A stretch of 64,000 nucleotides of DNA from a virus. The position numbers and the translations under genes are program-made. The stretch lies in the UHGV virus genome UHGV-1363143; one strand, written 5' to 3'. The notes beneath the pieces were generated by a model that saw only the letters and a program-made list of their open reading frames with translations, did not search any database and was not told where the DNA came from. How positions within the stretch are numbered: position 1 is the first letter of the stretch; every line of letters begins with the position of its first letter. Below, one piece after another: positions 304-62,712 of this stretch.

Positions 304-984
304 TTATTTCACCTCTTTTATTTGAGCCTTTTTCCATGAATATAATCCAAATATAGAATTGCATAGGTAAACTATCCACATAATTAATGTAGCCATCTCT
401 CCTACACCATTTATTAAAGAGAATGCCCACATGATTATTGATACTACATTGATAATAACCCATATCACCCATTGCTCCATAAATTGTTTAACCATTAATA
501 TCATTGCAATGATAGATAGAATTGTTGAAGTTGAATCTAAGAATGGTAGATAATTACCTAAAGACTTTAAGAAGAATCCATAGAAAATAACTAAGGAAAC
601 TGATATTCCGACTAATCTAATTCTTCCTTCTGTGCTAAGACTTTTTGATTCTATTTCTCCATCATTCTCTTCCTTAGCTTTCTTCCACATATAAAGACCT
701 ATAAATTGCATAGGCAAGTAATATAACGCATTTAACATTACTTCTCCATAGAAGCTAGCTTGGTAAGATAAAATAGCATAAGTAGAAACATTAATAGCAC
801 CAAATAAATAATTTAATGACATTCTCTTAGCTACTAGGATTACAGATAAGATACCTGTTAATGAAGATACAATCGCTAAGGGACTATCTCCCCAATAAAG
901 GCTTAAACCTAGTGTAGATAATGTCGCAACTGTTACCCATAAAATTTCATAAAGCTTCCAGTTTTTAAATATTGTTTTGTTCAT
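304..984 (-). CDS. pnuC: PnuC-family nicotinamide riboside transporter
   Basis: 226 aa, multi-pass membrane protein rich in Trp and Tyr. Size and hydropathy pattern are typical of PnuC, and it is operonic with the NMNAT-like gene. Confidence 0.55.
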   Translation of the reverse strand: MNKTIFKNWKLYEILWVTVATLSTLGLSLYWGDSPLAIVSSLTGILSVILVAKRMSLNYLFGAINVSTYAILSYQASFYGEVMLNALYYLPMQFIGLYMWKKAKEENDGEIESKSLSTEGRIRLVGISVSLVIFYGFFLKSLGNYLPFLDSTSTILSIIAMILMVKQFMEQWVIWVIINVVSIIMWAFSLINGVGEMATLIMWIVYLCNSIFGLYSWKKAQIKEVK

Positions 985-39564: not shown

Positions 39565-39641
39565 TGGCGACTCACAAGGGGATCGAACCCTCGACCTCTG
39601 GCGTGACAGGCCAGCACTCTAACCATCTGAGCTAGTGAGCC
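39565..39641 (-). tRNA. tRNA-Asp (GUC)
   Basis: GGCUCACUAGCUCAGAUGGUUAGAG..., anticodon loop CUGUCAC, T-loop UUCGAUC, CCA encoded. Confidence 0.9.
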
Positions 39642-39647
39642 ATATTA

Positions 39648-43551: not shown

Positions 43552-43665
43552 GCTCCCTTGAATATGCGTTGTATTTTTCGATTCTTTTCGAAAAAACATT
43601 GCTTTTATAATAATTTATAGGTACAATGTAGATACAACGTATATGCAAAAAAGCTTAGGGAGGTA

Positions 43666-44670: not shown

Positions 44671-44672
44671 CC

Positions 44673-44990
44673 ATGTCTAAAAGACCAGGCTCATTTGTTT
44701 TCACATTTAGTAAAAAGAACGAAGATGTGAAAAATATCATTGACAATAAAAAGAAATCCGATAAAAATTTTGTAAAAACTGACTACATGTGTGCTGCAGT
44801 TAGATTTTATGAAAAATATAAGGATAACTTTAATGATAACTCTTCTCTTAGCGAGAATGATGTAATAAGAATAGTCAATGAAATATTAAAAAACAATCAA
44901 ATTAGTGTTGATAGTGATGTGAATGTAATTAATACTTCACTTAATTTAAACACAGATCACATATCAGATAGCGATTTAGAGGAAGATTAA
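44673..44990 (+). CDS. small protein immediately downstream of parM-like gene; ParR-like centromere-binding adaptor candidate
   Basis: 105 aa. Sits 2 nt after the parM stop, with a basic N-terminus and an acidic C-terminus. Confidence 0.35.
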   Translation: MSKRPGSFVFTFSKKNEDVKNIIDNKKKSDKNFVKTDYMCAAVRFYEKYKDNFNDNSSLSENDVIRIVNEILKNNQISVDSDVNVINTSLNLNTDHISDSDLEED

Positions 44991-45018
44991 AGCACTGTAT
45001 AATTCAGTGCTTTTTTGA
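44991..45018 (+). terminator. rho-independent terminator (AGCACUG-loop-CAGUGCU then U6)
   Basis: 7-bp stem, 7-nt loop and a T-run directly after the ParR-like stop codon. Confidence 0.6.
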
Positions 45019-45025
45019 TATAATT

Positions 45026-46351: not shown

Positions 46352-46371
46352 TTTTCTAGCTCTTTTATTTT
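46336..46371 (+). terminator. rho-independent terminator (9-bp stem AGUUAGAAA/UUUCUAGCU then U-run)
   Basis: Imperfect palindrome overlapping the stop of 45026..46351, followed by tcttttatttttt. Confidence 0.45.
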
Positions 46372-46701
46372 TTAAATTACAGATGCATTTTTTAGGTACT
46401 ATATTTAAATTACAGATGCATTTTTTAGGTACTATATAAAAAAGAGATGCACTTTTTTGGTGCTATATCGACACAGAAGTGCATTTTTTAAGTGCTATAT
46501 TGATACTTTTTTTATAAGTGCATTTTTATCAATTATTTAACCTTTAAAAAGTTTTTTAAAATTTATGATTTTAAAACTAGAGATGCATTTTTTAGGTACT
46601 ATATTAATATAGAAGTGCATTTTTTTGGTGCTATATTAAAACTAGAGATGTATTTTTTAGGTACTATATCAACATAGAAGTGCATTTTTTTGGTGCTATA
46701 T
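46372..46701. repeat. iteron array: ~9 direct repeats of consensus AGA(T/A)GTGCATTTTTT(A/T)GGT(A/G)CTATAT around an AT-rich core; candidate plasmid-type origin or partition centromere
   Basis: A perfect 33-bp tandem duplication at 46372-46404 and 46405-46437. Further copies lie at ~46438, 46473, 46514 (partial), 46579, 46609, 46644 and 46674. Two alternating subtypes (..gatgcattttttaggtactatat and ..gaagtgcatttttttggtgctatat) recur at about 31-35 bp spacing, flanking the AT-rich tract 46531-46578. Confidence 0.75.
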
Positions 46702-46787
46702 TAATACTTTTCACAAATTAGACATAATAATTTTTTTAATATAAACTATGTTTATAATTAGAATATTATGTGAAAGGAGTGAAAACT

Positions 46788-47786
46788 ATGGTAACAAAAC
46801 AGATGATTAAATTAAGTAAGCAACTACTTTTAGACTTATCTTCTCTTAAATATACTCAAGATGACAGTGTAAACCTTCAACCAGAGTATAGAGATTATAA
46901 GAAATGTAGTGCTAATTGTCCGTTTTATAAAAATAAGGATGTTTCATTGTTTTGTCAAAAAGAGTGTGTATTTGTTTTATCTACTAGCTCATTAATAAAG
47001 CCTAGAGAAAACATACTTACTTATACTCAAATAAAACAGTTATTATATTATAACTCAACTGTATTTGAAAACAATGGAATAACCATAGAGCTTTCACATA
47101 AGGATGTAGCTAAAGCTATTAACTGTTCGGAAAGAACAGCTAGAGATAATATTAATGCTTTAGTTAAAGCTGGTTACATTGTAATATCTTCATATAATGA
47201 TAATAAATACAAGGTGTTTATCAGGGATTATCATAAGTATCATGAAAATGGTAATCGTGGACATCTTTATTTGAGCAATAAATGTTTTAAAGCTTTAATA
47301 AAAATAGATAACATAAATACATTAAGATTAGCTTTAGTTGGATTAGTGCGTCTTGATGATATGCGTGCATCTAAAGATAAAAATCCTTCTAAAGAATTAT
47401 CTTATAAAGCTCTAATTAACTTATTGCCTTCAAATATAACTTGCCCTAAGCAAATAGTTAAAATATTTACTAAGGCTAAAGAATTATTTAAAATGACATT
47501 CAAAGACGAATCTATATCTATATCTTTTAATAAGGACATAGATTCATTGGCATACGCAAAAAGCCTTAATAAAAATAATAAGAAGGCATTATCTAAATTC
47601 CTTAAAAGATTTGAATTAACTGTAACTAATAAGGATAAAGAAGATCTTCTTCAAATGTCTATCCAATATAATATTCATATTGTAACAAAGGCGTTTAATT
47701 ATATAAAGGATAAAAATCCTGATGAGTTAGGATCATATTTAAGAACAGTTATAAGAAATAACTTCAATTCTTTAATTTCTTGTTAA
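46788..47786 (+). CDS. helix-turn-helix DNA-binding protein immediately downstream of iterons; candidate replication initiator or iteron-binding protein
   Basis: HTH segment LSHKDVAKAINCSERTARDNINALVKAGYIV. The ATG at 46788 has RBS GAAAGGAG at spacing 8, whereas the ORF-track start at 46770 is GTG. A terminator follows at 47790-47816. Confidence 0.45.
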   Translation: MVTKQMIKLSKQLLLDLSSLKYTQDDSVNLQPEYRDYKKCSANCPFYKNKDVSLFCQKECVFVLSTSSLIKPRENILTYTQIKQLLYYNSTVFENNGITIELSHKDVAKAINCSERTARDNINALVKAGYIVISSYNDNKYKVFIRDYHKYHENGNRGHLYLSNKCFKALIKIDNINTLRLALVGLVRLDDMRASKDKNPSKELSYKALINLLPSNITCPKQIVKIFTKAKELFKMTFKDESISISFNKDIDSLAYAKSLNKNNKKALSKFLKRFELTVTNKDKEDLLQMSIQYNIHIVTKAFNYIKDKNPDELGSYLRTVIRNNFNSLISC

Positions 47787-47789
47787 ATT

Positions 47790-47816
47790 AGGGCTTTTTT
47801 GTTGTGCCCTTTTTTA
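47790..47816 (+). terminator. rho-independent terminator (AGGGC-loop-GCCCU then U-run)
   Basis: agggcttttttgttgtgcccttttttatt directly after the stop codon. Confidence 0.55.
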
Positions 47817-48216
47817 TTATTTTTACCTATTTGGGATATAAAACTAATGATAGCTATTACATTTTATATTATTTTTGTTGATAACCTGTTGATAATATGT
47901 GAGTAATAGCTTTTTTATTCACAAGTCAAGGAAAAAAAGATTGTTAGTAATTAAAAATAAACTGTTTATAAGTAAAAAAAATTTGTTACTAAAATTTTTT
48001 AATATCTTAATAACAAAAAAATATATGTATATAGTTTTAAAAAGATGTGTTGATAAGAATTTATTAAATCGAAGTTAATTCCATGAGTCAAGTATTTATC
48101 CTATCTAACACATCCTTGAAGCATAAATTTATTAACACTAACTTCTCTCCTATAACTTCTGTTTTATAACCTCTGCTCTATTAACGACTGGAGAGATAAC
48201 TACTAATATATATATG

Positions 48217-48399
48217 TCATAATTTTTTAAGTATGCTTCTATTTATTTTATTTAAAGTATTCCCTACTGTTTTTCTTTTAGCTCTTTTGATAATCTTTTT
48301 GGGATTACCAGTAAGTACAGTTTCTATATCATTAATTGTAGAAGCTATTTTATTAATAGTTCTAGATGTATCGTAAAAAACTTTAGATATTTTTTTCAC
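48217..48399 (-). CDS. small basic protein (GTG start), divergent from parA
   Basis: 60 aa, Lys/Arg-rich. An AAGGAGAG RBS sits 6 nt upstream of the GTG. Confidence 0.35.
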   Translation of the reverse strand: MKKISKVFYDTSRTINKIASTINDIETVLTGNPKKIIKRAKRKTVGNTLNKINRSILKKL

Positions 48400-48538
48400 T
48401 TAATACTCTCCTTTCATATTAAGGTTTTAATATTCAAAATTCAAGATATTTTATAATATATTTTCAATTTTAAATATTATTAAATTTCCTATTAGTAAAT
48501 CTAATATACTCTATATTATAGAATAAAATAGATTTTCG

Positions 48539-48566
48539 TTGTATATCGAAAAAAATGTGCTATAAT
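48539..48566 (+). promoter_or_regulatory. candidate promoter for parA operon (TTGTAT, 16-nt spacer, extended -10 TGcTATAAT)
   Basis: -35 at 48539-48544, TG motif, and -10 TATAAT at 48561-48566. The parA start lies about 30 nt downstream. Confidence 0.45.
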
Positions 48567-48595
48567 TTTCTTATAACTATAAAAAAGGGAGATGA

Positions 48596-49411
48596 ATGTT
48601 TATGCCTAAAACTATAGCTATAGGTACCTTTAAAGGTGGAGTTGGAAAAACAATGACTACTTTTAATTTAGCAGGTATATTAGCTGAGAGAAATTACAAA
48701 GTATTGTGTATAGATGTAGATCCTCAAGGAAATCTAACAAGTAATCTTGGAATTAATAGAGCTAATAATGGCTTAGTTGGTGTTGAAGCTATATTTAGTG
48801 AAAACTCTACAGTTAATCTTAACGATATAATAATAAAAAGTCCAATAGAGCAACTACCAACATTAGATCTTTTACCTAGCACAGTTTTGCTTCATAAATC
48901 TGAATTATTTATGGCATTAGCTCCTGCTAGAGAACTAAAGTTAAAGTATTTCATGATGGATAATAAAGAGGTTCTTGATAACTACGATTATATTTTAATA
49001 GATACTAATCCTAGTATGGGATATCTTAATCAAAATGCATTTGTAGTTGCAGATAAAATTATTATGCCAGCAACTGCAGATTTATCAGATTTAGATGGAA
49101 TACATCTATTCTGTGCATTATGGGATGATTTAAGAGAAAAATTACGTATAGACGATAATATAGCTGCTGTAGTTACTACTAAGAATGACAAAAGAGTTTC
49201 TCTTGATAGAAGTTTTATTGAACATATTAAAACTACAGAAGATAATGAAGATATAGCAGAATTATTAGTAGATACAATAATTCCTGTCAATGTTACTCTT
49301 AAGGAAGCAGCAATGAGCTGTCAACCTATTAATCTTTATAATAAGAATTGTATTGGTTATCAAGCTTATAAAAAATTGGTAGATGAGCTATTCGAAAGAG
49401 GTGTATTCTAA
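48596..49411 (+). CDS. parA: ParA/Soj-family partition ATPase (type I)
   Basis: Deviant Walker A KGGVGKT in IAIGTFKGGVGKTMTTFNLA. About 270 aa, typical of small ParA. Confidence 0.8.
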   Translation: MFMPKTIAIGTFKGGVGKTMTTFNLAGILAERNYKVLCIDVDPQGNLTSNLGINRANNGLVGVEAIFSENSTVNLNDIIIKSPIEQLPTLDLLPSTVLLHKSELFMALAPARELKLKYFMMDNKEVLDNYDYILIDTNPSMGYLNQNAFVVADKIIMPATADLSDLDGIHLFCALWDDLREKLRIDDNIAAVVTTKNDKRVSLDRSFIEHIKTTEDNEDIAELLVDTIIPVNVTLKEAAMSCQPINLYNKNCIGYQAYKKLVDELFERGVF

Positions 49412-49917
49412 TGGCCAGAAAGTCTACAGGTAATAAATTCAGTTCCATTGCTAATTCAACTCCTCGTAATTTACCATTTAGAGAAACTCTTACCATAGAA
49501 GATAGAATTGCATATGATAAGCTTAGTCCTGAGGAACAAAGTGGATATGAGCAGTTTTGTATTGATAATGTAAATAATAATAGTATTGAAGATTATCTTC
49601 ACTATAGTAAATCAAAGTCTACTCCTAAAATAGTAACTAAAGCTACTAAAAATACAACTAAACCTATTGAACAGCCAGTAGAAATAAATATATCAGAAAC
49701 TAATATAAAAACTGATATAACTGATTATAATCCAGTTCAAAGTGTTCAAAGTATGATAAATAAAAACTTATCTATTGAAGAAGAAGCTGGTAAAAATATA
49801 TCTGTTTATTTAAGTGCTGAAGCATTAAACGTAGTTTCTGTATATATGAAAAAGCATAAAATTAAAAACAGATCTAAATTAATAGAAACAGTATTATTAA
49901 GCGTACTTAAAGAATAA
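49411..49917 (+). CDS. ParB/ParG-like centromere-binding partner of ParA (candidate)
   Basis: Translationally coupled through a TAATG overlap with parA. 168 aa with a basic N-terminal tail. Confidence 0.4.
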   Translation: MARKSTGNKFSSIANSTPRNLPFRETLTIEDRIAYDKLSPEEQSGYEQFCIDNVNNNSIEDYLHYSKSKSTPKIVTKATKNTTKPIEQPVEINISETNIKTDITDYNPVQSVQSMINKNLSIEEEAGKNISVYLSAEALNVVSVYMKKHKIKNRSKLIETVLLSVLKE

Positions 49918-50877: not shown

Positions 50878-51810
50878 TTATTTGATTATACTATCTAATA
50901 TTTGTTTTCTTAATTCATAAGAAATTTGAGATCCTGCTGATTGAGGATGTCCTCCCCCACCATAATAAATAGCTACTTCATTACCAAGGTCTATGTCTTT
51001 TTTTACTGTTCTATAACTTACTGTACTTAATCCAGCAATCATAGCAATAAAATCTAAGTCAGGATTTCTCTCTGATAATTCATTGCCTAATTCACTTAGG
51101 TAATTATCTGCTACTACTATTCCGGCTCTAAACTTCTTACCATTAATAATTAATGTTTTTTTATAAATGAATTTATTTTTCTTATCAATATATTTTTGAA
51201 TCTTTTCATTCTCTAATTCCAATAAGAATTTATCTGTATCATTAATCATACAGAATACATCACTAGTAAGTCTTTTATAGTACTCTGTCTCGAATCTTTC
51301 TTGGCCATATATTTTAAATAAATCATTAAGATGTTTGGCTCTTAAGTCATTGTACTTTTCTTTCCATAGCCATGTATCATATCTTTTAACTGTATCAACA
51401 AATATTTTTATAGATACTTTTTTCTCTAACATATTGTTGTCAACAAGATAATTATAAAGTAAGCTTGTACCACATATTTTTTCAATTTCATCTTCTATTT
51501 GAACGGTACACCATTCATACTTATTTAATCCTATTGCTGTAGGATGATGGTCAAGTAAAATAGTCATATTTTTAAGTATGCTATTATTTTCAATAATTTG
51601 AGCTACTTCTTCAGTAATTGATATATCTGTTATAAAGATATAGTCATAAATTTCATATGATCTATTATCAATAAACTCCTTTATCTTCTCATTAATATTG
51701 TAATATCCGCAGTAATCTGCGTGTACATTTTCTCTACCTGCTGCTAATTGTGTAAGTATAGAACATGCATATCCATCTAAATCATTATGTGAAAAAATTT
51801 TTATTTTCAT
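50878..51810 (-). CDS. DHH-DHHA1 family phosphoesterase (NrnA-like nanoRNase / pAp phosphatase fold)
   Basis: Motifs HNDLDGY, LLDHHPT and GGGGHPQSAG (DHHA1). The start is set at the internal MKIKIF, which has a GGAGGA RBS. The track start at 51864 lacks an RBS. Confidence 0.65.
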   Translation of the reverse strand: MKIKIFSHNDLDGYACSILTQLAAGRENVHADYCGYYNINEKIKEFIDNRSYEIYDYIFITDISITEEVAQIIENNSILKNMTILLDHHPTAIGLNKYEWCTVQIEDEIEKICGTSLLYNYLVDNNMLEKKVSIKIFVDTVKRYDTWLWKEKYNDLRAKHLNDLFKIYGQERFETEYYKRLTSDVFCMINDTDKFLLELENEKIQKYIDKKNKFIYKKTLIINGKKFRAGIVVADNYLSELGNELSERNPDLDFIAMIAGLSTVSYRTVKKDIDLGNEVAIYYGGGGHPQSAGSQISYELRKQILDSIIK

Positions 51811-52029
51811 AATAAGTCCTCCATTAAATTTCATTTGTAATTTTATGATAAAGCATTCTTTCATACTTTCTTATCTTATGTTCTTTTTCATTTAAGGAGT
51901 GTTTTAAGCTGTTGCTATATCCTATAAAAATTAAGTTGCTAATTAGTAAAATTAATATTATTAATATCGTAAACAATGTTAAATCCCCTTTATCTTTTGA
52001 TTAGTATTTGTAAAATAATATAAGTTATA

Positions 52030-52338
52030 TTAGGCAAATGATAAATTGCCTACAGGAATGTTATCTAATTTATCTAATAAGCTAGAAATACCTATTTTCA
52101 TTTTTCTTCTTTTTCTGTTTGTGTCATATAAATTAGTGAAATATGAAGGATAATCTGTACCTTTTTTAGAAGACGTATCTTTTTGTACAGGTGAATTTAC
52201 ACTTCTTTCTGTAGTTTGTTGTGCAATTATATTATGAGCTCCAGTAGCATTAGCTGGGGCTGAACACCCGCTAAGCATTACAGAAACTCCTATTAGACTT
52301 GTTATTATTATTATTTTTTTTATAATTCCTCTATTCAT
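52030..52338 (-). CDS. small secreted lipoprotein
   Basis: Signal peptide followed by a lipobox LSGCSAP. Confidence 0.5.
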   Translation of the reverse strand: MNRGIIKKIIIITSLIGVSVMLSGCSAPANATGAHNIIAQQTTERSVNSPVQKDTSSKKGTDYPSYFTNLYDTNRKRRKMKIGISSLLDKLDNIPVGNLSFA

Positions 52339-52360
52339 TATATATACCTCCTTGAATAGC

Positions 52361-52807
52361 TCAATATTGTTTTACAATACAATTGATATTCATTCTTTTT
52401 GCGATTTCAATCATACTTTTAGTCCCCCTACTTATACCATCCCAAAATATTAAACAGCCACTTTTAAGTGCCTGTGATGCAAAAACGGCCATTTCATTAT
52501 TTCTTTTATATCCTGCACTTTTATCATAACTACCATCAGGTTGTCTATTCCATTTAGCAGGAAAACGGTATATTTTATAGCCTCTTTCTTTTGCATATCT
52601 TTCTCCTAATTTGTCTGCTCCATTAGCGGTACCAGAAATGATAGCAATTTTATGTGTCTTTACAACATTGCTTAAAACATAATCACATACTTCTTTTAAG
52701 TATTCATAATCATTAAAAGTTCTTGTGCCAGCTATTATTAATCGAAATTCATCCTTTTCTTTAGATTCATTTAAAGGAGAATATGTGTTACAAAAATCTG
52801 CACACAT
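52361..52807 (-). CDS. SLOG-superfamily nucleotide-binding protein (DUF2493/YpsA-like)
   Basis: IAIISGTANGADKLGERYAKERGYKIYRFPAKW...KRNNEM matches the SLOG Rossmann-like pattern. Confidence 0.5.
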   Translation of the reverse strand: MCADFCNTYSPLNESKEKDEFRLIIAGTRTFNDYEYLKEVCDYVLSNVVKTHKIAIISGTANGADKLGERYAKERGYKIYRFPAKWNRQPDGSYDKSAGYKRNNEMAVFASQALKSGCLIFWDGISRGTKSMIEIAKRMNINCIVKQY

Positions 52808-52808
52808 A

Positions 52809-53588
52809 TTATTTCACCTTCTTAAAAGCTTCACCTGCAAGTTGATCCGCAAGCTCATTATATGTATTTCCTGTATGGCCAAAAACATGAATAAATTCAG
52901 TAACTATACCAGGATTGCTATCTATAAACTCACAATAGGCCTTAGTGTATTGATTTTTACACTTCCATTCTTTAGTTGCCCATTTACCTATTCCTTCGTA
53001 GTCATGAAATATTCTACATGTTAGACCATGATCTCTTATCCAGCATATAGCATTCATTGCAGCTGATAATTCACCAGCGACATTTCTCATTGATGCAGCA
53101 CCAGAGTCTTTGCCAATATCTGAATCAGTATGTATAACCTTATTGTCTTGAACTACTACATAAGCATAACTATACATTCCATTTTTGAATGATCCATCTA
53201 CATATACATCAACTGTTTTATTTGAATTTGCAATTTCATTTTGAACAAAACCTTTGAATTTATCTGATTTTTTTAACATAGTCGATGCTAATACATCAGT
53301 TGTATATGCTAATGCATGAGCAGGACTAAAACCAGGATCTATTCCATCAAACATTTTTAAAGTACGCTTATCTAATGATTTTGGTTTAACGAATCTTTCA
53401 AAACTTGCATTTGAGCTTATTTGAAGATTTTCAACTCCAACATAGTTCACAGCTTCAGATAGTTGAGTTGATTTAAAACTTTTATATTCAGCACCAGAAT
53501 AACCATCTACTTGTGCTTTGCATTCGTCCCAAGAGCTATATAGTCCTGGTACTAATCCTTTTTTTACTGCATATATTTTACTTGCCAT
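52809..53588 (-). CDS. rnhA: ribonuclease H1 with N-terminal hybrid-binding domain
   Basis: N-terminal YAVKKGLVPGLYSSWDECKAQVDGYSGAEYKSF (HBD). C-terminal VYVDGS...AGELSAAMNA...FHDYEG...HTGNTYNELAD carries the RNase H catalytic D-E-D-H-N-D pattern. Confidence 0.75.
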   Translation of the reverse strand: MASKIYAVKKGLVPGLYSSWDECKAQVDGYSGAEYKSFKSTQLSEAVNYVGVENLQISSNASFERFVKPKSLDKRTLKMFDGIDPGFSPAHALAYTTDVLASTMLKKSDKFKGFVQNEIANSNKTVDVYVDGSFKNGMYSYAYVVVQDNKVIHTDSDIGKDSGAASMRNVAGELSAAMNAICWIRDHGLTCRIFHDYEGIGKWATKEWKCKNQYTKAYCEFIDSNPGIVTEFIHVFGHTGNTYNELADQLAGEAFKKVK

Positions 53589-53835
53589 TAAAAGTTCCTC
53601 CTAACAATTCTTCTATTGGAGATATAACAGGTTTGCATTTCTCCTTGTGTTTTCTAGTATTTTTTTTAAGTTCAGCCTGCATAACTAAAGATGCTTGCAT
53701 TTCTTGAATATATTCATGTTGACTTATTTTAGGAATAGCAGTTCTGTCATTTTCATTGCTGCTATTCTTTGTACGATTAAATGGCTTATAGTCATTAATA
53801 TAAAGATTGTCAACAACTCTATTGACAGTTAACAT
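53578..53835 (-). CDS. hypothetical protein
   Basis: 85-aa ORF. Confidence 0.4.
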   Translation of the reverse strand: MLTVNRVVDNLYINDYKPFNRTKNSSNENDRTAIPKISQHEYIQEMQASLVMQAELKKNTRKHKEKCKPVISPIEELLGGTFNGK

Positions 53836-53845
53836 ACTTTCACCT

Positions 53846-54247
53846 CTAAAAAATAAAACTTAAAATTTTATACATTATAAATAAAAAAGTAAATGCACCT
53901 ATAAATGCGATTACAGTAGTTTTAGAATCTTCTTGTTTTAATTGCTCCTGTTCTTTTATTTGCTGAGCTCTTATTTCTTCACCATGACCTTTTATGTTTT
54001 CAATATACTTTATTACATCTGGATCAGTAACTTTAGGAATTCTTCCTTTTACAGTTTGTTCATAGGATCTATTCCAATGAATACCTGTACGTTCTTCAAG
54101 TATATCTTTCATATGATCCTTAAACTCTATTACTTTAGGTTCATCATTGATGGATTCACTAATTCCATTTGCATCATCTATAAATTGAATAACATCAAAA
54201 GTTGATTTTATTATTTGTTTAGTTATCATACTTTTACTAGTACTCAT
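53846..54247 (-). CDS. hypothetical protein with C-terminal TM anchor
   Basis: 133-aa ORF. Confidence 0.45.
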   Translation of the reverse strand: MSTSKSMITKQIIKSTFDVIQFIDDANGISESINDEPKVIEFKDHMKDILEERTGIHWNRSYEQTVKGRIPKVTDPDVIKYIENIKGHGEEIRAQQIKEQEQLKQEDSKTTVIAFIGAFTFLFIMYKILSFIF

Positions 54248-54259
54248 TGAAATTCCCTC

Positions 54260-54709
54260 CTATTTATATCTAACTTCGTATCCTAAATTAGCGTAATAAT
54301 CTCCTAGTATTTTTCTATGGCAGTGTTCTAAACTACCGCAGAAACATACTAATAGAACATCTACACCTTGATTTAATAGCTCTATTATCCTAGCAAGATT
54401 AACTTGCATATAATTTTCATACATTTGTGCTATGAATTGCTCATAATATAATGACCACCAGGTAGCCCCTGGTCCTAGTTCTTTTAATCTAGTTTCTTCT
54501 TCTAAAGTGAACTCATTATATTTCCATCTAGTTATATATTTCTTATATAATTCAGGAGATGGAGCCAATTCAGGAACGTGTACCATTCCATATAACTCAC
54601 AATTTACTTTCATAGGATTTCTAACTATAAACAATTTCTTTGTATAGTTATCTTTATAATCCTTATATTTAGATAAAGAGCATAATTGAATATGCCCTTT
54701 ACTCATTTC
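54260..54709 (-). CDS. DUF488-family protein
   Basis: LAPSPELYKKYITRWKYNEF...VLLVCFCGSLEHCHRKIL matches the DUF488 pattern. The start is set at the internal MSKGH, which has a GGAGG RBS. Confidence 0.5.
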   Translation of the reverse strand, partial: EMSKGHIQLCSLSKYKDYKDNYTKKLFIVRNPMKVNCELYGMVHVPELAPSPELYKKYITRWKYNEFTLEEETRLKELGPGATWWSLYYEQFIAQMYENYMQVNLARIIELLNQGVDVLLVCFCGSLEHCHRKILGDYYANLGYEVRYK

Positions 54710-55031
54710 TTTCCTCCAATAAAAAATCATTTTGTAGATATTCTTGAATACATACTGGATACCAGCTATGTCCAAACTCTGGATTATTCTCGGCGTTTTC
54801 TTGAATGTAATTATCATAAGATTTAATTAACTTTATTAGAGTTTGTATATTTAAATCATCTATAGTCCTGTAATTCATCTTATAAGAATCACAGTCTTTA
54901 CATAAAATGTCTTGTGGATTGCCATTCTTATCAAAATTACAGCAATCAGGTGAACATGGAATTCTTTCGTCAAGCTCACACTTTTTAGTACACGATGAAC
55001 ATTCTTTTCCACACCATTCTGGATGAGTCAT
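54699..55031 (-). CDS. Cys-rich small protein
   Basis: 110 aa, with CGKECSSCTKKCELDERIPCSPDCC... Confidence 0.45.
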   Translation of the reverse strand: MTHPEWCGKECSSCTKKCELDERIPCSPDCCNFDKNGNPQDILCKDCDSYKMNYRTIDDLNIQTLIKLIKSYDNYIQENAENNPEFGHSWYPVCIQEYLQNDFLLEERNE

Positions 55032-56681: not shown

Positions 56682-56957
56682 TTAAGCAACTTCTCTTGTA
56701 TCAATATTCTTCCACTTATTCTTATTACTAAAGCCACCACGTAGATGACGAATACTTTTATTGTAATCTAAGATTATTCTGGCTCCTTTAGCCATTGTTG
56801 GATTAATTGATTTAATCCTTTGAGTTAAATCTCTATGTACTGTACTTGTGCTCACTCCAAAGTACTTAGCAACAGTTCTAAGAGTTGACTCTGAACTAAT
56901 CATAAATTCAGCCTCAGCTCTAACTCTTTTTTCTATTCTTTCTTGTAATTTACTCAT
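56682..56957 (-). CDS. spoIIID: SpoIIID-like sporulation transcriptional regulator homologue
   Basis: VAKYFGVSTSTVHRDLTQRIKSINPTMAKGARIILDYNKSIRHLRGG is collinear with B. subtilis SpoIIID (FGVSKSTVHKDLTERL...ILDYHKSIRHLRGG). Confidence 0.7.
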   Translation of the reverse strand: MSKLQERIEKRVRAEAEFMISSESTLRTVAKYFGVSTSTVHRDLTQRIKSINPTMAKGARIILDYNKSIRHLRGGFSNKNKWKNIDTREVA

Positions 56958-57000
56958 ATATAAAACATCACCTTTCTTATAAAAAATAAAAACCTCTAGA

Positions 57001-57480
57001 TTAGTCTTCTAGAGGCACGTATATGTTATATTTAAAATCTTTTGGTATAGTTCTGTTTACTAATTTACTTTCAAATTTAGAAGAACAATAAATTTTACAT
57101 GAAAGGACTTTGTTCATTTCTGTGTCATAACTGCTATAAGTTTTTATCGCAATGTTAAGCTCTCGTATTTTATCTGCAAATTCCTTTCCTTCATTAAAAC
57201 TATTTGCTGTAACATCAAATATCCATAGCTTATCTCTTTCAGATTTTTTGATAAGTATTCCTGGTAAATAAGTACCTATAAATGTTGCTACACACATAGC
57301 TATAATACTTTCTAAACTATTATTTTTAGTAAGTTGTACTATAGCAACTAGATAGAAAAATGTAGAGAATGCACTAAGCAATGCTCCTAAGAAATATCTT
57401 TCCTTATTGATATAAATAGTCTTAGCTGTACTAAGTCCATTATCAAGGATCTTCAATATAAATGCTATTAATGGTGCCAT
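57001..57480 (-). CDS. membrane protein (2-3 TM plus cytosolic domain)
   Basis: 159-aa ORF. Confidence 0.45.
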   Translation of the reverse strand: MAPLIAFILKILDNGLSTAKTIYINKERYFLGALLSAFSTFFYLVAIVQLTKNNSLESIIAMCVATFIGTYLPGILIKKSERDKLWIFDVTANSFNEGKEFADKIRELNIAIKTYSSYDTEMNKVLSCKIYCSSKFESKLVNRTIPKDFKYNIYVPLED

Positions 57481-57483
57481 AAA

Positions 57484-58083
57484 TTAAAACTCCCTTTGTG
57501 CAAATTGTAATTTATGTTTATAATAAAGACTTCTCATGATTAGAGCAGTCTTAATTGAAACCATGTTTTCATCAATAAATTTTAATGCATCATTCATTTT
57601 AATTACTATAGGCTCTATATCTTCATGGCCTTCATTATGTTCTGTAGAGATCTCTCCAGTTACATTTGCAATATAAACCGCGCATGATTCATCACTCATA
57701 CCTACAGATGTATAGCTTGGCTTAAGTATTTGTTCTATACAATAACAAGATAAACCAACTTCTTCATAAAGTTCTCTTTTAACTGCAGCATTAGTTGATT
57801 CACCTACATCTACTAATCCAGCAGGAAATTCATAAATATAGTCATCTATCGCTGGTCTATACTGCTTTATCAACACAAGGTCTGAATTATCGAATATAGG
57901 CACTATAAGTACTGCATCAGCCTTATTATGGTCTTTAGATATACATGATAGTCTTCCTTTATTTTTCCTTCTTGAAGCGACATAATAAGGGTATATATCT
58001 CCTGTTTGATCATTAGTAACTTCTATGTTATATAAATTAAGAAAGTTATTATCTGTTATTTTTTTTACTCTATTTACTGACAT
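57484..58083 (-). CDS. NUDIX hydrolase (ADP-ribose pyrophosphatase-like)
   Basis: Nudix box GLVDVGESTNAAVKRELYEEVGL. The start is set at the internal ATG 58083, which has an AAGGAG RBS. The upstream extension overlaps ORF 58112..58339. Confidence 0.65.
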   Translation of the reverse strand: MSVNRVKKITDNNFLNLYNIEVTNDQTGDIYPYYVASRRKNKGRLSCISKDHNKADAVLIVPIFDNSDLVLIKQYRPAIDDYIYEFPAGLVDVGESTNAAVKRELYEEVGLSCYCIEQILKPSYTSVGMSDESCAVYIANVTGEISTEHNEGHEDIEPIVIKMNDALKFIDENMVSIKTALIMRSLYYKHKLQFAQREF

Positions 58084-58111
58084 GTTAATTGCTCCTTTAG
58101 AGCCAGCGGCC

Positions 58112-58339
58112 CTATAGCTGAATACTATTTTTGGCCGCAATAGCTTCTTCTTTTGAATTATATAGATTGTCCCAATCAATATTGTAGTAATTAGACCATG
58201 GCCCAATCTCTACATGCATTCCAGGACATTCTCCCATTTCTGTTGTAGCTAAAACGTCTTTAGCTTTTTCAACAGTTAAATCTGTAAAATCAAATGTAGT
58301 AACTTCTCCACATTTTTTACATTTACCTAATACGTACAT
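58112..58339 (-). CDS. small zinc-ribbon protein
   Basis: 75-aa ORF with CKKCGEV...ECPG. Confidence 0.4.
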   Translation of the reverse strand: MYVLGKCKKCGEVTTFDFTDLTVEKAKDVLATTEMGECPGMHVEIGPWSNYYNIDWDNLYNSKEEAIAAKNSIQL

Positions 58340-58366
58340 AACTAATCTCCTTGTCTACAAGTATTT

Positions 58367-58744
58367 TTACAATCTTTTAGTTGCTCTAACTAAATTACTA
58401 TATGTCCAAGGCTGTTTTTCTTCTTGATAGCTTATACTTAATTCTTGGCTACATTTAATACATAAACAGCCTTCTCTATTCCAAGGTTTTTGAGAGATGT
58501 TCGCTCCGCATCTCTCACAACCTAATTCTGCAGATGCATATTTTCGGCCCATTTTTATATATTTTCTATTTTGTTTATTGCCAACTAAAACTAATGAATC
58601 AGTTGTGATGGTAGAGAATGTTCCTTTATCCATATCCCAAGGATAGTTCTTTTTAATTAATAAATTTCTAAGACTGAATATATTTATTCTAGCTCTAGGA
58701 TTACTAAATATCATATCTTGGGTTAGATCCACATTGCTTTTCAT
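58367..58744 (-). CDS. hypothetical Cys-rich protein
   Basis: 125-aa ORF with CERCGAN...CLCIKC. Confidence 0.45.
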   Translation of the reverse strand: MKSNVDLTQDMIFSNPRARINIFSLRNLLIKKNYPWDMDKGTFSTITTDSLVLVGNKQNRKYIKMGRKYASAELGCERCGANISQKPWNREGCLCIKCSQELSISYQEEKQPWTYSNLVRATKRL

Positions 58745-59511
58745 TACTTTTTACATTTTAAAAAGCTCTTAACTTTTTTAAAAAAGCTCTTATTTTCCTG
58801 AGTATTTATATTAATAGTTCCTCCTCTAAGAGTAAAGTTATTATTTGATTCATCAAGATTAGCAAGTTGAGCCTTCAATTCTTCTATTGTTTCAGGAGTT
58901 GATATATGTACATCTATAGCCTTCTTTCTCTTGACTTTCATTTCATTAACAAGTTTATCAAGAGTTAAATCGCAATATTCATCTTCCCAATCTCCTAATA
59001 CATAGAACCTATCTACAATACTTCCAGTCTTTTTATCTTGGAATGTTCCAAATAGTATTGGATCCTTTTCTCTTCTTTCCTTCTCTATTTGCTTTTCTAT
59101 CTTTCCTGTGTAGTCAGTAAAGATAATATATAGTTGATCGAACTTATCTTTAGTGGCTTCAATAACATCAACTATTTCATCTGGAATTTCTCTTTCATAG
59201 TTCTCTAATTCGATTATCTTCACAACGTCATTTGCTACATTATCAATATAATCTTCTATATCATCCTTATAGATGAATGTATTAATACCTAATGAAACAA
59301 TTTCTCTTTCCTTTTCGATTGTTTCTAAGTGAAACATTAATTTCTTAGCACCTTTAACTTGTCCAGTTGTTACATACTTTTTCATTAATGTAAGACAATT
59401 AGAATATATTTTCTTTAACTCATCATCTGTTATTTCAGATTTTTTAGTTTTTAATAATTCAAAATACTCTTTTGGTGTTATTTCTTTTGTACCATTATTT
59501 TTGCTACTCAT
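58744..59511 (-). CDS. hypothetical protein
   Basis: 255-aa ORF. Confidence 0.5.
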   Translation of the reverse strand: MSSKNNGTKEITPKEYFELLKTKKSEITDDELKKIYSNCLTLMKKYVTTGQVKGAKKLMFHLETIEKEREIVSLGINTFIYKDDIEDYIDNVANDVVKIIELENYEREIPDEIVDVIEATKDKFDQLYIIFTDYTGKIEKQIEKERREKDPILFGTFQDKKTGSIVDRFYVLGDWEDEYCDLTLDKLVNEMKVKRKKAIDVHISTPETIEELKAQLANLDESNNNFTLRGGTININTQENKSFFKKVKSFLKCKK

Positions 59512-59589
59512 CGTATTTTCTCTCCTTTTGTATTGTCCATAAATATATTATGCTCATTACACAAAAAAGCATAATGAGCACAACATTTT

Positions 59590-59853
59590 TTAATATTCAT
59601 TTGGGAGTAGGATTTTAGTATGACGATCTGCGAATTCTGTTATGATATAAAATTTAACACCTTCTCTATCTATATATACACTGAATACATTATCAGTTTT
59701 GTTAGAGATAGCTTCGTTATTCATATTAATGGACTCTTGATCTATCAAACCAAAATCTCCTTTTCTATGATTTTCTAATGATGTCATAACATCATCTTTG
59801 TTTAAGGTGGTATTAGCACCTGGAGTAATTAGTATAGAGCCTAATTTAAACAT
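59590..59853 (-). CDS. hypothetical protein
   Basis: 87-aa ORF. Confidence 0.4.
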   Translation of the reverse strand: MFKLGSILITPGANTTLNKDDVMTSLENHRKGDFGLIDQESINMNNEAISNKTDNVFSVYIDREGVKFYIITEFADRHTKILLPNEY

Positions 59854-59983
59854 AATGATTCCTCCTAGATTGTTTTCTCCATAGTCTTTACTATGGCTAT
59901 TAAAAACATCATAACTATAACGAATATTATTACAGTTATTTTTTCTTGAGGACTTTTATTTCTTATATGCTCCATAGATCCTC

Positions 59984-60400
59984 CTAAGCCTTAAGATTAT
60001 CTCTTACTCTCATAAGAATTTTACCTAACTTATTTTGACCTATACCAGCACATACGCCCCAGTATCTATCATTCCATGTGTTGCCTTCAATAAGTTCAGC
60101 GTCACCTGTATCTAATAGCCGTTTGGCCAGCACAGGATTTTGTTCGAACTTAGCCTGTACTATTTCGTACATAATGCCATCTTTTACTTCTTCCCAGTCT
60201 TTTCTTAAAAGAACTCTTCTACCTAATCTCTTAGCATCGCTAGGATTTAAGTCTGCAAATTCTTTTCTACCTTCCCCAAATATTTTTTGAGCATGAAAAG
60301 CAGCTTCTGCATTTTTGTACGTTATATTTTTAAAAGTAATATCTGAATTATAGAAATTACTTAAAAAACGATATTTACCATTAAATGATGCTATTATCAT
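59984..60400 (-). CDS. NADAR-family (YbiA/DUF1768-like) ADP-ribose-processing protein
   Basis: FLSNFYNSDITFKNITYKNAEAAFHAQKI...AKRLGRRVLLRKDWEEVKDGIMYEIVQAKFEQNPVLAKRLLDTGDAELIEGNTWNDRYWG matches the NADAR pattern. Confidence 0.65.
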   Translation of the reverse strand: MIIASFNGKYRFLSNFYNSDITFKNITYKNAEAAFHAQKIFGEGRKEFADLNPSDAKRLGRRVLLRKDWEEVKDGIMYEIVQAKFEQNPVLAKRLLDTGDAELIEGNTWNDRYWGVCAGIGQNKLGKILMRVRDNLKA

Positions 60401-60868
60401 CTAATTGCCTCCTTCGTATTTATATAATGTTATGTGCACTGGCCAGAGAGGATTGTCAAAATATTCTTCAATCAATCTGTATACTTCTGACCAGTTAGCT
60501 CCGCCTCGTCCACATCCTATTCCATAAGGCATAGCAATCGAATAATTATGTCGAATTGCATAATCTCTTAACTTCATAAAACATGTTTCTAAGGCTTCTA
60601 TGTTTGTATATTGTTTGTCCCATCCATAAGAGTCTTGTCCAAATATATTACATATAACTTTGCCATTAGTCATAGTTAACATTTGTATTTTGCCAAGCAA
60701 TTCTGATCCCATAGTTTTGCAATACTTTTCGTAATTAGGGAATATTGATGGATAAGTTTCTCTAAGTTCTTTTGCTACACCTGAACCCATTACACCTTTA
60801 CAGTTAACTTGATGGGCGATAATATTCTCTGTAGCTTTAACTACATTTCCTTCAATAATATTAATCAT
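60401..60868 (-). CDS. Macro-domain protein (ADP-ribose binding/hydrolase fold)
   Basis: IIEGNVVKATENIIAHQVNCKGVMGSGVAKEL has a macro-domain-like N-terminus. The start is set at the internal MINII. The track alternative begins at 60937. Confidence 0.6.
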   Translation of the reverse strand: MINIIEGNVVKATENIIAHQVNCKGVMGSGVAKELRETYPSIFPNYEKYCKTMGSELLGKIQMLTMTNGKVICNIFGQDSYGWDKQYTNIEALETCFMKLRDYAIRHNYSIAMPYGIGCGRGGANWSEVYRLIEEYFDNPLWPVHITLYKYEGGN

Positions 60869-61049
60869 CTTCTTTTTCCTTTTCTGTTTCCTGTTTATCA
60901 GTTTCTGGTTGGCAAGCTCTACACCTACCCATATCATCTAAATTTTTGTTATTACAAAATCTAGAACAACATTTACATCGTGTAAGCATAATTCCTCCTA
61001 TAATATATATTATGTTATATATTCAATTAGAAACTATAATAGAAAAATA

Positions 61050-62108
61050 TTATTTATCATTTTCGTCTGCTCTTTCTAATTGAAGTAATAAATCATCAAT
61101 AGTAACACTTTCTCTATTGCACATAGCTACTGCTACTTTCAATGCTTTGTTCCATTCTTCTTTAGTTTCTATACAATCTATCTTACTCTTTTGCTTTCTT
61201 TCATATACGCTTAAAGAGTATCTTCTACCAGATAAATCTATATCATAATCATTTCTTAATATTGTATATAATTGTTTATAACATAAGTAAGGTGTATTAA
61301 AGTTCTTTTTTTCAGCTATTCTAATCATCATTGATATGATTACTCTTCTATATGTTTCAACAGTAGCAACAGTAGATATTTCTTCTGATAATGCTTTATT
61401 AGTTAATCTTAAACTATCAACTAAGTCGCCCATCTCTGCAATAGATTCTTTAAGTTCAAAGTTCTCTTTTTCAAGAGCTTTAAATGCTTCTTCACTATAT
61501 CTATTGTTGTATGATTTAAGGTCTTGCATAGCTTTTACGAATCCATCTATATCATTATTCATAAACGCTGCGCCTACTACTCTTTGTAATAGTTCCATTT
61601 CCTTATCTACTTCAGCTACTTTAACTTCTGGAGCAACTTTTTCTTCTATGTTAAGTAATTGAGTTCTTACCTCCATAGCAATATCACTATCTCTAAGTAA
61701 CATTCCTACTCTAAGAATAGCTCTTCTAGTAAATAATAAGTTTTTACCATTACCTACATTAATTGATGATCCATTGCCTAAAGGTATTTCTATATGAGAT
61801 TTATGTTTAACAACGCCGTTGTCATTTTGACAATATCGTTCAAGTACTTCTTTTCTAGATAGTACAATCATTCCATCGCTTTCTAATTCTGCTCTATGTC
61901 TCTTAACTACATTAGTCTTTATATTAGTAACATCTACTTCATAGAAGTCTGCTACTCCTTGAGCTGTAGTGAACTGCATTCCAGGTATAAGTAATAATTG
62001 TTTAACTTTATCCAATACTTCTACTCTGTTTATAAGTTCCTCTCTAACTCTTACATTCATTAATATTTCTTCAGGATCTTTTTTGTTTTTCATATATAAT
62101 GCCTCCAT
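61050..62108 (-). CDS. ORF6N-domain phage antirepressor/regulatory-like protein with coiled-coil C-terminus
   Basis: FTTAQGVADFYEVDVTNIKTNVVKRHRAELESDGMIVL resembles the ORF6N/KilA-type DNA-binding domain. Confidence 0.45.
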   Translation of the reverse strand: MEALYMKNKKDPEEILMNVRVREELINRVEVLDKVKQLLLIPGMQFTTAQGVADFYEVDVTNIKTNVVKRHRAELESDGMIVLSRKEVLERYCQNDNGVVKHKSHIEIPLGNGSSINVGNGKNLLFTRRAILRVGMLLRDSDIAMEVRTQLLNIEEKVAPEVKVAEVDKEMELLQRVVGAAFMNNDIDGFVKAMQDLKSYNNRYSEEAFKALEKENFELKESIAEMGDLVDSLRLTNKALSEEISTVATVETYRRVIISMMIRIAEKKNFNTPYLCYKQLYTILRNDYDIDLSGRRYSLSVYERKQKSKIDCIETKEEWNKALKVAVAMCNRESVTIDDLLLQLERADENDK

Positions 62109-62111: not shown

Positions 62112-62142
62112 TAAATAAAAGCAGTGACCTTTCGGCCACCGC
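62112..62142 (-). terminator. rho-independent terminator (9-bp stem with GAAA tetraloop then U-run)
   Basis: GCGGUGGCC-GAAA-GGUCACUGC followed by UUUUAUUUAU on the minus strand, directly after the stop of 62149..62712. Confidence 0.6.
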
Positions 62143-62148
62143 TTAAAA

Positions 62149-62712
62149 TTATTGTAATGATTCTAATTCTTGTTCTAATTTATTTATTTCATTAGCTAAT
62201 TGAGTTTTTCTAAATTCTGTTTCTTGATCTATATTACTAAGAGCATTTTTCTTAAATTCAAGACTCTTTTTAAGTTGAGCAATATTCTTTTCCTTTTCAG
62301 AAGTATTTAATTCAGTTAATAGCTCTTCTAACGCTTCTGTCATCTCTTTCTTTATATCTTTATACATATCTTTACAGCTATGACTATAACTATATTCATC
62401 CGCAACATCGGACCAAGGCTTTTCGCACATTCCATAAAATCCGTCCCAAATGATATCTATGTACATTTTCTTGATTTCATCAATGTTCTTATCTTTAATA
62501 GCTTTTAATTCTATCTTAGCAATAAATGACTTTGCTCTATCATTAAGCTTAATTATATATTTTTGCTCTAATCCTTCTGAGCGTGAATCTAAGTAGTTAA
62601 AATAGTTATCTATGCAATTCTCCATAGGTAAGTTTGCTACTTTCTCCTTTAAGATGTTACTGTCGTTTATAAACATTTTATCTATTTCCATATCAATCGT
62701 CTCCTTACGCAC
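62149..62712 (-). CDS. hypothetical protein
   Basis: 187-aa ORF. Confidence 0.45.
   Translation of the reverse strand: MRKETIDMEIDKMFINDSNILKEKVANLPMENCIDNYFNYLDSRSEGLEQKYIIKLNDRAKSFIAKIELKAIKDKNIDEIKKMYIDIIWDGFYGMCEKPWSDVADEYSYSHSCKDMYKDIKKEMTEALEELLTELNTSEKEKNIAQLKKSLEFKKNALSNIDQETEFRKTQLANEINKLEQELESLQ

Follow-up and report, generated by a model that had tools for sequence, protein, structure and literature searches.

A candidate macrodomain-NADAR pair of ADP-ribosyl erasers and a lineage-specific Nudix gene in the accessory array of a gut jumbo phage

We scrutinized a 64,000-nucleotide stretch of the virus genome UHGV-1363143 (hereafter the window), in which three proteins of ADP-ribose (ADPR) processing families are encoded between positions 57484 and 60937. 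These are a Nudix hydrolase, a NADAR-family protein and a macrodomain protein (NUDIX, NADAR and Macro below), and their ten-open-reading-frame (ORF) span sits in a long run of minus-strand genes, in sequence of 30% GC. The prominent feature was the Macro gene with the NADAR gene directly behind it, a pair which, judged from gene arrangement, appears to be translationally coupled and to have been kept together in other phages and in operons of bacteria. The reading to which we lean, with moderate confidence, is that Macro and NADAR would form a core of complementary orphan ADP-ribosyl erasers protecting phage DNA, and that NUDIX is a lineage-specific add-on.

An earlier reading made from the letters alone (the sequence-only reading) had placed the three genes on one strand and proposed comparison with hidden Markov models (HMMs) as the check on its assignments. 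All three were found on the minus strand, with the quoted motifs present and their active-site motifs intact, and all three products scored above the Pfam cutoffs: NADAR with 104.3 bits against PF08719 (E 1e-29; cutoff 35.1), Macro with 36.7 bits against PF01661 (E 4.6e-9; cutoff 22), and NUDIX with 50.7 bits against PF00293 (E 2.4e-13; cutoff 21.1). The gene coordinates given there had followed the longest ORFs. The starts of NUDIX and Macro were set here from ribosome-binding sites and from gene calls on identical metagenomic contigs, which moved them to 58083, where an AAGGAG ribosome-binding site is present, and to 60868. In naming NADAR and macro as the two known folds for ADPR removal, that reading left out the ARH/DraG fold.

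The ATG of NADAR abuts the stop codon of Macro, and a GGAGG sequence lies 8 nt upstream of it, inside the Macro gene. A scan of IMG/VR with the single Macro sequence gave nothing; an alignment-based scan, used in its place, found 535 loci that encode the Macro family, and the phage neighbourhood counts refer to the best 80 of them. NADAR was present within 10 kb of Macro in 42 of these 80 loci. In a lineage of gut phages of about 150 kb, the two genes abut or overlap by a few bases, in the order seen in the window, at 39 of 55 loci, and two further lineages have NADAR no more than 2 kb from Macro. Bacillus phage PJN02 has the order NADAR, one small gene, Macro, and its NADAR is 30% identical to that of the window. 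Among GTDB genomes, the Macro family was found mostly in Bacillota. At least 10 Paenibacillus-type loci (listed in Table 1) carry an operon of NrtR, NADAR (7 of 10), Macro and, usually, a bacterial-type PARG. NrtR, a Nudix domain joined to a winged helix, is an ADPR-sensing regulator; the operon appears to encode an ADPR-responsive set of three different ADP-ribosyl hydrolase folds, and the phage cassette may have come from such a cellular operon. The pair recurs in viruses as well as cells, its NADAR drawn from different subfamilies and its genes in either order, which speaks for a functional link between the two members.

Macro contains the residues H19, N22 and Q78 and the loops GVMGSG and GCGRGG. 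An AlphaFold2 model computed from a 76-sequence alignment had a predicted local distance difference test (pLDDT) score of 94. Its Foldseek ranks 1-17 were occupied by Bt_1257, DarG (Taq, Mtb), Poa1p, SCO6735 and TARG1, with template modelling (TM) scores of 0.76-0.85 for the best entry per protein and Bt_1257 on top at 0.85. The model therefore places Macro in the ALC1/TARG1/DarG class, as a Gln-type member. DarG models cover it only by their N-terminal macro half (residues 1-147 of 338 in NCBIfam, 1-144 of 329 in PADLOC), and it is therefore classified as an orphan macrodomain, not as DarG. At 155 amino acids (aa), it lacks the C-terminal DarT-binding domain of DarG. The two hydrolase folds of the window are those of the antitoxins DarG2 (macro) and DarG1 (NADAR); unlike in DarTG systems, no darT or other ADP-ribosyltransferase (ART) gene adjoins the pair, and no ART domain was detected by Pfam and gene-call tables in the genes neighbouring NADAR.

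Q78 aligns with the catalytic lysine K80 of DarG (motif FPTKK), with the GQ motif of Bt_1257 and with the Gln of T4 Tk.4/AdfM. It is invariant in 76 members of the Macro family (motif N-x-F-G-Q-x-x-Y-G), in which His19 and Asn22 are also conserved. SCO6735 has Q85 at the position of DarG K80 and TARG1 K84 by the structural alignment in the study that described it; this enzyme is a very efficient hydrolase of thymidine-linked ADPR on DNA, rescues cells from DarT, has no activity on guanine-linked ADPR, and is inactivated by Q85A (PMC9411070). The change from Lys to Gln was considered as evidence against DarG-like activity and dropped, given the essential Q85 of SCO6735 and the Gln shared by Bt_1257 and T4 AdfM. 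Gln78 is thus no defect, since Q85 is needed for thymidine-ADPR hydrolysis in SCO6735. Macro resembles SCO6735 and Bt_1257 both in this Gln and in the upstream His-x-x-Asn, although conservation of K34 and K89 of SCO6735 is not obvious in it. After the Gln comes the "mobile loop", which is intermediate in length: it exceeds that of DarG by about 3 residues and falls short of that of Bt_1257 by about 3, where the extended loop expected of Gln-type ALC1-like macrodomains is about 5 residues longer than the DarG loop.

T4 Tk.4, recently named AdfM, is required for growth of T4 on DarTG2 hosts, and AdfM macrodomains counter DarTG2 (PMC13309987; preprint 10.1101/2025.11.20.689424). Macro is like AdfM (PhiKZ gp104, T4 Tk.4) in being a stand-alone protein of about 155 aa, of the DarG/TARG1 class and free of the DarT-binding C-terminal domain. 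The His...Asn...Gln pattern is shared with T4 Tk.4 (motifs AHGCNC and YTQ), whereas PhiKZ AdfM keeps the DarG-type Lys. Identity to AdfM is only 26-29%, and Macro belongs to a separate clade of Bacillota and their phages (293 matches at E <= 1e-5).

NADAR also passed the TIGR02464 model (82.3 bits; cutoff 73.7), and its best matches in the PDB were E. coli YbiA (6e-18) and the Phytophthora NADAR PnNADAR (8BAU; 1e-6). Residues E32, K39, E105, D111 and W114 align with E43, K50, E125, D130 and W133 of PnNADAR, which are the ADPR-contacting and catalytic residues according to Schuller et al. (PMC11543638). Position 105 holds Glu, the state of the YbiA family, where T4 AdfN has His and DarG1-type NADARs have Asp. 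Over its full length, the window NADAR is 48% identical to a NADAR of T5-like phages. The BASEL phages IrisVonRoten and HildyBeyeler, which we infer to be Bas32 and Bas33, likewise carry the gene for this T5-like protein. Johannesman et al. reported that AdfN-Bas32, the NADAR of two T5-like BASEL phages, neutralises DarT1 and rescues phages from DarTG1 (PMC11825919). The window protein is likewise an orphan phage NADAR in which the conserved Glu and Lys (E32 and K39) have a spacing of seven residues, as in the AdfN proteins T4 gp30.3, AdfN-Bas32 and AdfN-Bas60; unlike theirs, its gene directly follows that of a macrodomain. The NADAR subtypes tested so far all hydrolyse guanine-linked ADPR, and none hydrolyses the thymidine-linked form. 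In Bacillus phage SPbetaL3 (L014, 109720-114408), a 65%-identical NADAR was noticed 3.4 kb upstream of Gad1, an annotated anti-Gabija gene; a close homolog thus shares its region with a known anti-defence gene.

In NUDIX, the Nudix box Gx5Ex7REUxEExGU is intact from G89 to L111 (57751-57819, GLVDVGESTNAAVKRELYEEVGL). Of its 27 PDB matches, the first 20 were all pyrophosphatases of ADPR, ADP-sugars or ADP-compounds (Bacillus NudF/ACT, Mtb, NUDT5, Thermus, NudE). These alignments also take in the N-terminal domain and, downstream, the catalytic loop, in which SVGMSDE (E132) aligns with SPGFADE. The top NCBIfam models were NudE and ADP-ribose pyrophosphatase (ADPRase). The likeness to NudF, NUDT5 and NudE thus comprises the canonical box, the N-terminal extension and the downstream S-x-G-x-S-D-E motif. 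The closest cellular homologs, at 50-55% identity, belong to the core chromosomal gene set of Clostridium perfringens, Sarcina and C. paraputrificum. By these comparisons, NUDIX would be an ADP-ribose-pyrophosphatase-like enzyme of the NudF/NUDT5/NudE clade, derived from Clostridium.

This type of NUDIX is rare in phages, with 14 weak records. Its gene lies 1.9 kb downstream of NADAR within an array bracketed by hairpins, and it may possibly be carried on the same transcript as Macro and NADAR. Outside the window, this NUDIX was seen near a NADAR gene only in the closest relative, L008, where it lies 5.4 kb downstream of NADAR. There, a 4.7-kb block (L008:7084-11794) that encodes a PspA/IM30-like protein, two TerD proteins and an 867-aa P-type cation ATPase precedes NUDIX, and it replaces the phrog_10081 gene and the 125-aa gene of the window. 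Since L008 carries different genes at this place, the site before NUDIX is taken to be a hotspot of accessory-gene exchange. NUDIX is therefore best described, from its distribution, as an apparent lineage-specific add-on, and not as a conserved partner of the Macro-NADAR pair.

On the basis of these likenesses, the favoured course of events can be set out. Macro and NADAR would be produced together, early in infection. NADAR would cleave ADPR linked to guanine N2, the mark left by DarT1, ScARP or pierisin-type enzymes, and the Gln-type Macro would cleave thymidine-linked ADPR of the DarT2 type, by analogy with SCO6735, PhiKZ AdfM and T4 AdfM. The pair would in this way keep phage DNA replicable in ADP-ribosylating hosts and set ADPR free. 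We infer that NUDIX, if coupled at all, most likely turns the freed ADPR into AMP and ribose-5-phosphate, and that a NARP3 pathway would then restore NAD+.

The NARP3 step refers to genes at the other end of the window. NARP3 rebuilds NAD+ from imported nicotinamide riboside (NR) by means of a PnuC and NadR-like pair (PMC13464706). The window encodes a PnuC-type transporter, and the 353-aa NadR-like protein whose gene it abuts combines CTP_transf_like NMNAT and AAA_28 RNK domains; the two together have the NARP3 architecture. A second Nudix protein, of 204 aa, adjoins NrdD 5.5 kb beyond this pair. NARP3 has so far been described mainly for phages of Enterobacteriaceae, and here it occurs in a Clostridium-type jumbo phage. 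Genes for a SLOG protein, a DHH phosphoesterase and a DUF488-N3a protein all lie within 10 kb of the Macro-NADAR pair. In the gut-phage lineage of about 150 kb, DHH or SLOG homologs are again found near Macro-NADAR, with SLOG within 10 kb in L022, L033 and L042. Iyer, Burroughs, Anand, de Souza and Aravind (Viruses 2022) described tandem Macro-NADAR architectures and the co-occurrence, above chance, of the domains Macro, NADAR, SLOG and Nudix in large DNA viruses. The present phage carries all four of these domains. A wider proposal is that a mobile Macro-NADAR cassette erasing both thymine and guanine marks was captured from an ADPR-inducible NrtR-NADAR-Macro-PARG operon of Bacillota, and that it shares one transcript with a host-derived ADPR pyrophosphatase, in a scheme of "erase, dispose, rebuild" that would include NARP3 and act against DNA-ADP-ribosylating and NAD-depleting defences. 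We regard this extended scheme, taken as a whole, as doubtful.

Several observations weigh against the eraser reading, and the first of them concern substrates. YbiA and the T4 NADAR gave no rescue from DarT1 toxicity, though both are active in vitro. Macro, for its part, could act on a soluble metabolite, to judge from comparison with Adpp, a macrodomain phosphatase of ADPR-1''-phosphate that extends NARP1 against the aRES defence (preprint 10.64898/2026.01.28.702374). An Adpp ortholog was identified as gp178 of Vibrio phage Wyman, between Adps-like and Namat-like genes (gp177-179). It shares the His/Asn/Gln motifs with Macro (AHQCNC, YGQ), and against the profile of the Macro family it scored 71.6 bits, as high as Mtb DarG (70.8) and T4 AdfM (65.3); Bt_1257, Taq DarG and PhiKZ AdfM scored 64.8, 58.1 and 54.7 bits, respectively. 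The His/Asn/Gln motifs, the profile scores and the isoelectric point were each tried as a means of separating DNA hydrolases from the Adpp phosphatase, and none discriminates. Since motifs and scores are alike for macrodomains directed at DNA and at metabolites, the genomic context must carry the argument about the substrate.

An account in terms of soluble metabolites would make Macro an Adpp/Poa1p-like phosphatase or a hydrolase of ADPR derivatives, let NADAR act on N-glycosidic ADPR small molecules and NUDIX on the pyrophosphate, and have the three clear or recycle the products of NAD-directed defences (aRES, Thoeris, SIR2, TIR). In keeping with it, Adpp belongs to the same macro class and its ortholog gave the top score among the reference proteins, Poa1p is among the best PDB matches of Macro, the phage has NARP3, a SLOG protein and a DHH phosphoesterase, and the bacterial homologs stand under the ADPR-sensing NrtR. 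Iyer et al. (2022) argued that Macro, NADAR, SLOG and Nudix of phages mainly target small, soluble ADPR derivatives, whereas later experiments pointed to de-ADP-ribosylation of DNA for some members. The context, however, speaks otherwise: Adpp is encoded between Adps and Namat, whereas the conserved neighbour of the window Macro is NADAR, and no NARP1 genes (PRPS-like Adps, NAPRTase-like Namat) were found near it by Pfam and gene-call tables. Moreover, all tested NADARs act on guanine-ADPR in nucleic acid, those of phages counter DarTG1, and no small-molecule ADPR substrate of a NADAR has been shown. The metabolite account thus appears to us rather unlikely. As for the suggestion of the sequence-only reading that the genes neutralise ADP-ribosyltransferase defences, it gains from the precedents of AdfN against DarTG1 and AdfM against DarTG2, and it is tempered by the equal similarity of Macro to the Adpp phosphatase.

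A related proposal is that Macro dephosphorylates the ADPR-1''-phosphate left by KptA/Tpt1 tRNA repair, with NADAR and NUDIX completing the degradation. The similarity to Poa1p, the large tRNA cluster of the window and the discussion of this hypothesis by Iyer et al. agree with it, but the gene-call tables of the window list neither KptA/Tpt1 nor an RNA ligase or 2H phosphoesterase domain, and we find it hardly credible.

The remaining points against the eraser reading concern linkage. NADAR lies within 10 kb of Macro in only 3 of 17 lineages when the phage loci are clustered at 70% identity. The closest relative, L008, whose NADAR is 88% identical, is without a Macro gene, although it keeps the 42-aa, NADAR, 36-aa, 87-aa and 75-aa ORFs, and no Macro was present within 6 kb in four other NADAR loci (42-63% identity). 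NUDIX was not found within 10 kb of Macro in any of the 80 phage loci by phmmer and a regular expression for the Nudix box. NUDIX also missed all NCBIfam equivalog cutoffs (NudE, 62.7 bits against 169), and V127 replaces the signature proline of ADPRases, the position being Val throughout the Clostridium subfamily. Dunn and colleagues reportedly described that proline, in 1999, as lying about 16 residues after the Nudix box. The terminator calls that delimit the array are simple pattern matches. In view of the 80 loci, and of L008 with NUDIX and without Macro, the earlier view of the trio as a module finds no support.

These observations would also suit independent accessory genes in a hypervariable region that form no functional unit, with NUDIX a housekeeping-type auxiliary metabolic gene and NADAR a YbiA-like N-glycosidase for by-products of the riboflavin pathway. 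The region is a mosaic, as L008 shows by lacking Macro, the phrog_10081 gene and the 125-aa gene and having PspA-TerD-TerD-P-type ATPase genes instead. The cellular homologs of NUDIX are stand-alone core genes, and NADAR lies above the cutoff of the TIGR02464 model, named for an N-glycosidase of riboflavin intermediates, with its YbiA-type Glu. Such independence is nevertheless difficult to reconcile with the abutment of Macro and NADAR and the internal Shine-Dalgarno sequence, or with the recurrence of the pair over phage lineages and bacterial operons with varied NADAR subfamilies in both orders. The window showed no riboflavin genes, and YbiA-type NADARs, too, hydrolyse guanine-ADPR in vitro. 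We consider this explanation improbable.

The array in which the three genes lie contains 11 genes, from that of the 352-aa protein through the DUF5698-like gene, and is bracketed by two terminator-like hairpins (Table 1). Besides these two, at 62144-62119 and 57016-56992, the minus strand shows no strong terminator-like hairpin between genes from 50 to 64 kb. The array from 57.0 to 62.1 kb is thus probably a single transcription unit, as far as such patterns indicate, and it consists of densely packed accessory genes of a gut jumbo phage. The 352-aa protein belongs to phrog_2286, has a match to PDC-M59A (1e-7) and is 85% identical in L008. The end of the 42-aa Cys-rich ORF overlaps the start of Macro (ATGATTAA). 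No Pfam, PHROG or PDB match was obtained for the 87-aa protein, and no Pfam or PDB match for the 255-aa phrog_10081 protein. Homologs of the latter with 45-60% identity occur in SPbeta-like and phiCD211-like phages and in large phages of Staphylococcus and Enterococcus, and Herelleviridae were also matched; the label "transposase" that it bears in some records is unsupported here and probably unfounded. As to the small zinc-ribbon proteins said to be interleaved with the three genes, Cys motifs that would suit zinc ribbons were found in the 42-aa, 75-aa and 125-aa products (60861-60989, 58112-58339 and 58367-58744) and were absent from the other intervening ORFs. Their inclusion in a common module finds no backing, in that no linkage is conserved outside the phage's own lineage.

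Table 1. Coordinates of features of the window, with bacterial operon loci in the last line (aa, amino acids; NMN, nicotinamide mononucleotide)
Feature	Position	Strand	Remarks
PnuC-type NMN/NR transporter	304..984	-	abuts 353-aa NadR-like gene just outside the window (L100:8682-9743)
Actin-like ALP_N protein	43666-44670	+	in plus-strand block
ParA-like AAA_31 ATPase	48596-49411	+	in plus-strand block
DHH phosphoesterase	50878-51864	-	nucleotide/ADPR accessory cluster 50878-54817
SLOG (YAcAr) protein	52361..52807	-	NAD/ADPR-associated domain
RNase H with Cauli_VI domain	52809-53588	-	nucleotide/ADPR accessory cluster 50878-54817
DUF488-N3a protein	54260-54817	-	nucleotide/ADPR accessory cluster 50878-54817
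SpoIIID homolog	56682-56957	-	PF12116, E 4.7e-27; immediately 3' of accessory array
Terminator-like hairpin and T-run, downstream array boundary	56992..57016	-	pattern match
159-aa membrane protein, last gene of array, weakly UPF0316/DUF5698-like	57001..57480	-	Pfam E 0.004, below cutoff; PRK04164 models far below cutoff
Nudix hydrolase (NUDIX), 199 aa	57484..58083	-	Pfam PF00293
75-aa small protein, CxxC...CxxxH	58112..58339	-	L008 homolog 49% identical
125-aa phrog_10532 protein, C-terminal zinc ribbon CxxC...CxCxxC	58367..58744	-	missing from L008
255-aa phrog_10081 protein	58744..59511	-	PHROG E 4e-101; variable insert, missing from L008
87-aa protein	59590..59853	-	accompanies NADAR in closest relative L008
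Hydrophobic peptide, 36 aa	59865..59975	-	kept 3' of NADAR in L008
NADAR (YbiA-fold), 138 aa	59984..60400	-	Pfam PF08719
Macro, 155-aa orphan macrodomain	60401..60868	-	Pfam PF01661
42-aa Cys-rich zinc-ribbon-like peptide (CxCC...CxxC)	60861..60989	-	AGGAGG ribosome-binding site; conserved in part in L008
352-aa protein, first gene of array, weak ORF6N-type N-terminal DNA-binding domain	61050..62108	-	Pfam ORF6N E 0.0015, below cutoff
Terminator-like GC-rich hairpin and T-run, upstream array boundary	62119..62144	-	11-bp stem (6 GC pairs) in the gap separating ORFs 62149-62712 and 61050-62108
NrtR-NADAR-Macro-PARG loci	L110, L113, L116, L117, L119, L127, L132, L142, L145, L157		Paenibacillus and related Bacillota

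The element from which the window derives is a jumbo phage of the gut, of about 240 kb. Human-gut contigs of up to 238 kb carry identical proteins, and the 88%-identical NADAR is present in a 241-kb genome of IMG/VR; a nucleotide search of the region against GenBank phages gave no match. The window encodes gyrase A and B, RecA-like proteins, ClpP and ClpX, peptide deformylase, UDG, Rad52, SNF2 and UvrD helicases, an endolysin-like glucosaminidase and 14 tRNAs. That the phage carries a sporulation transcription factor, the SpoIIID homolog, suggests that its host forms spores. This host is probably Clostridium sensu stricto, because the closest cellular homologs of NUDIX are core chromosomal genes of Clostridium and Sarcina. 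The sole plus-strand block of the window (42988-49917) has a lower GC content of 25-27% and an inverted skew. Its plasmid-type partition genes, taken with the SpoIIID homolog, hint that the element may live as a phage-plasmid in a spore-forming cell.

Erasers carried by a phage-plasmid might also benefit the carrier cell, as orphan immunity against ADP-ribosyltransferase toxins of competitors or of other mobile elements. The ParA-like and actin-like partition genes and the SpoIIID homolog would fit such persistence, PARG enzymes are known to give protective immunity against an RNA-ADP-ribosylating toxin (PMC11833690), and free-living Bacillota have NrtR-NADAR-Macro-PARG operons on their chromosomes. 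However, the genes lie in a long co-directional array typical of early or accessory genes of the lytic cycle, and the direct phage precedents, AdfN and AdfM, act during infection, which makes this benefit a very improbable explanation of the genes.

Several elements of the favoured eraser reading have already been published, namely the action of phage NADARs against DarTG1 (2024-25) and of phage macrodomains against DarTG2 (2025-26), the presence of both factors at separate loci in T4, and the co-occurrence of the domains (2022). The present analysis adds an example from a Clostridium-type jumbo phage, a conserved Macro-NADAR cassette with apparent translational coupling, an apparent cellular counterpart under NrtR, and a lineage-specific ADPRase-like add-on. 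If the reading is true, counter-defence by "orphan antitoxins" against DarT extends beyond phages of E. coli and Pseudomonas to uncultured jumbo phages infecting gut Clostridia, and a compact cassette of two genes spans both known chemistries of DNA-base ADP-ribosylation; such a cassette would be of use in predicting phage host range and in phage engineering. The ambiguity in sequence between AdfM/SCO6735 and Adpp is also a warning that phage "Macro" annotations do not yet denote one function.

Some further features of the window lie apart from these genes. A group I intron (5216-5620, minus strand; RF00028, 53.7 bits, E 1e-12) interrupts the gene of a UvrD-like helicase, the halves of which are ORFs 5563-6258 and 3782-5008; the phage loci L016, L018 and L059 have single ORFs instead. 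Within the cluster of 14 tRNAs (35926-39736), a GOLLD RNA (37263-37708, minus strand; RF02032, 171.8 bits) and a skipping-rope RNA (36258-36340, minus strand; RF02924, 58.2 bits) were detected, and ARAGORN reported an odd tRNA-Tyr with the anticodon ATA at 37170-37240.

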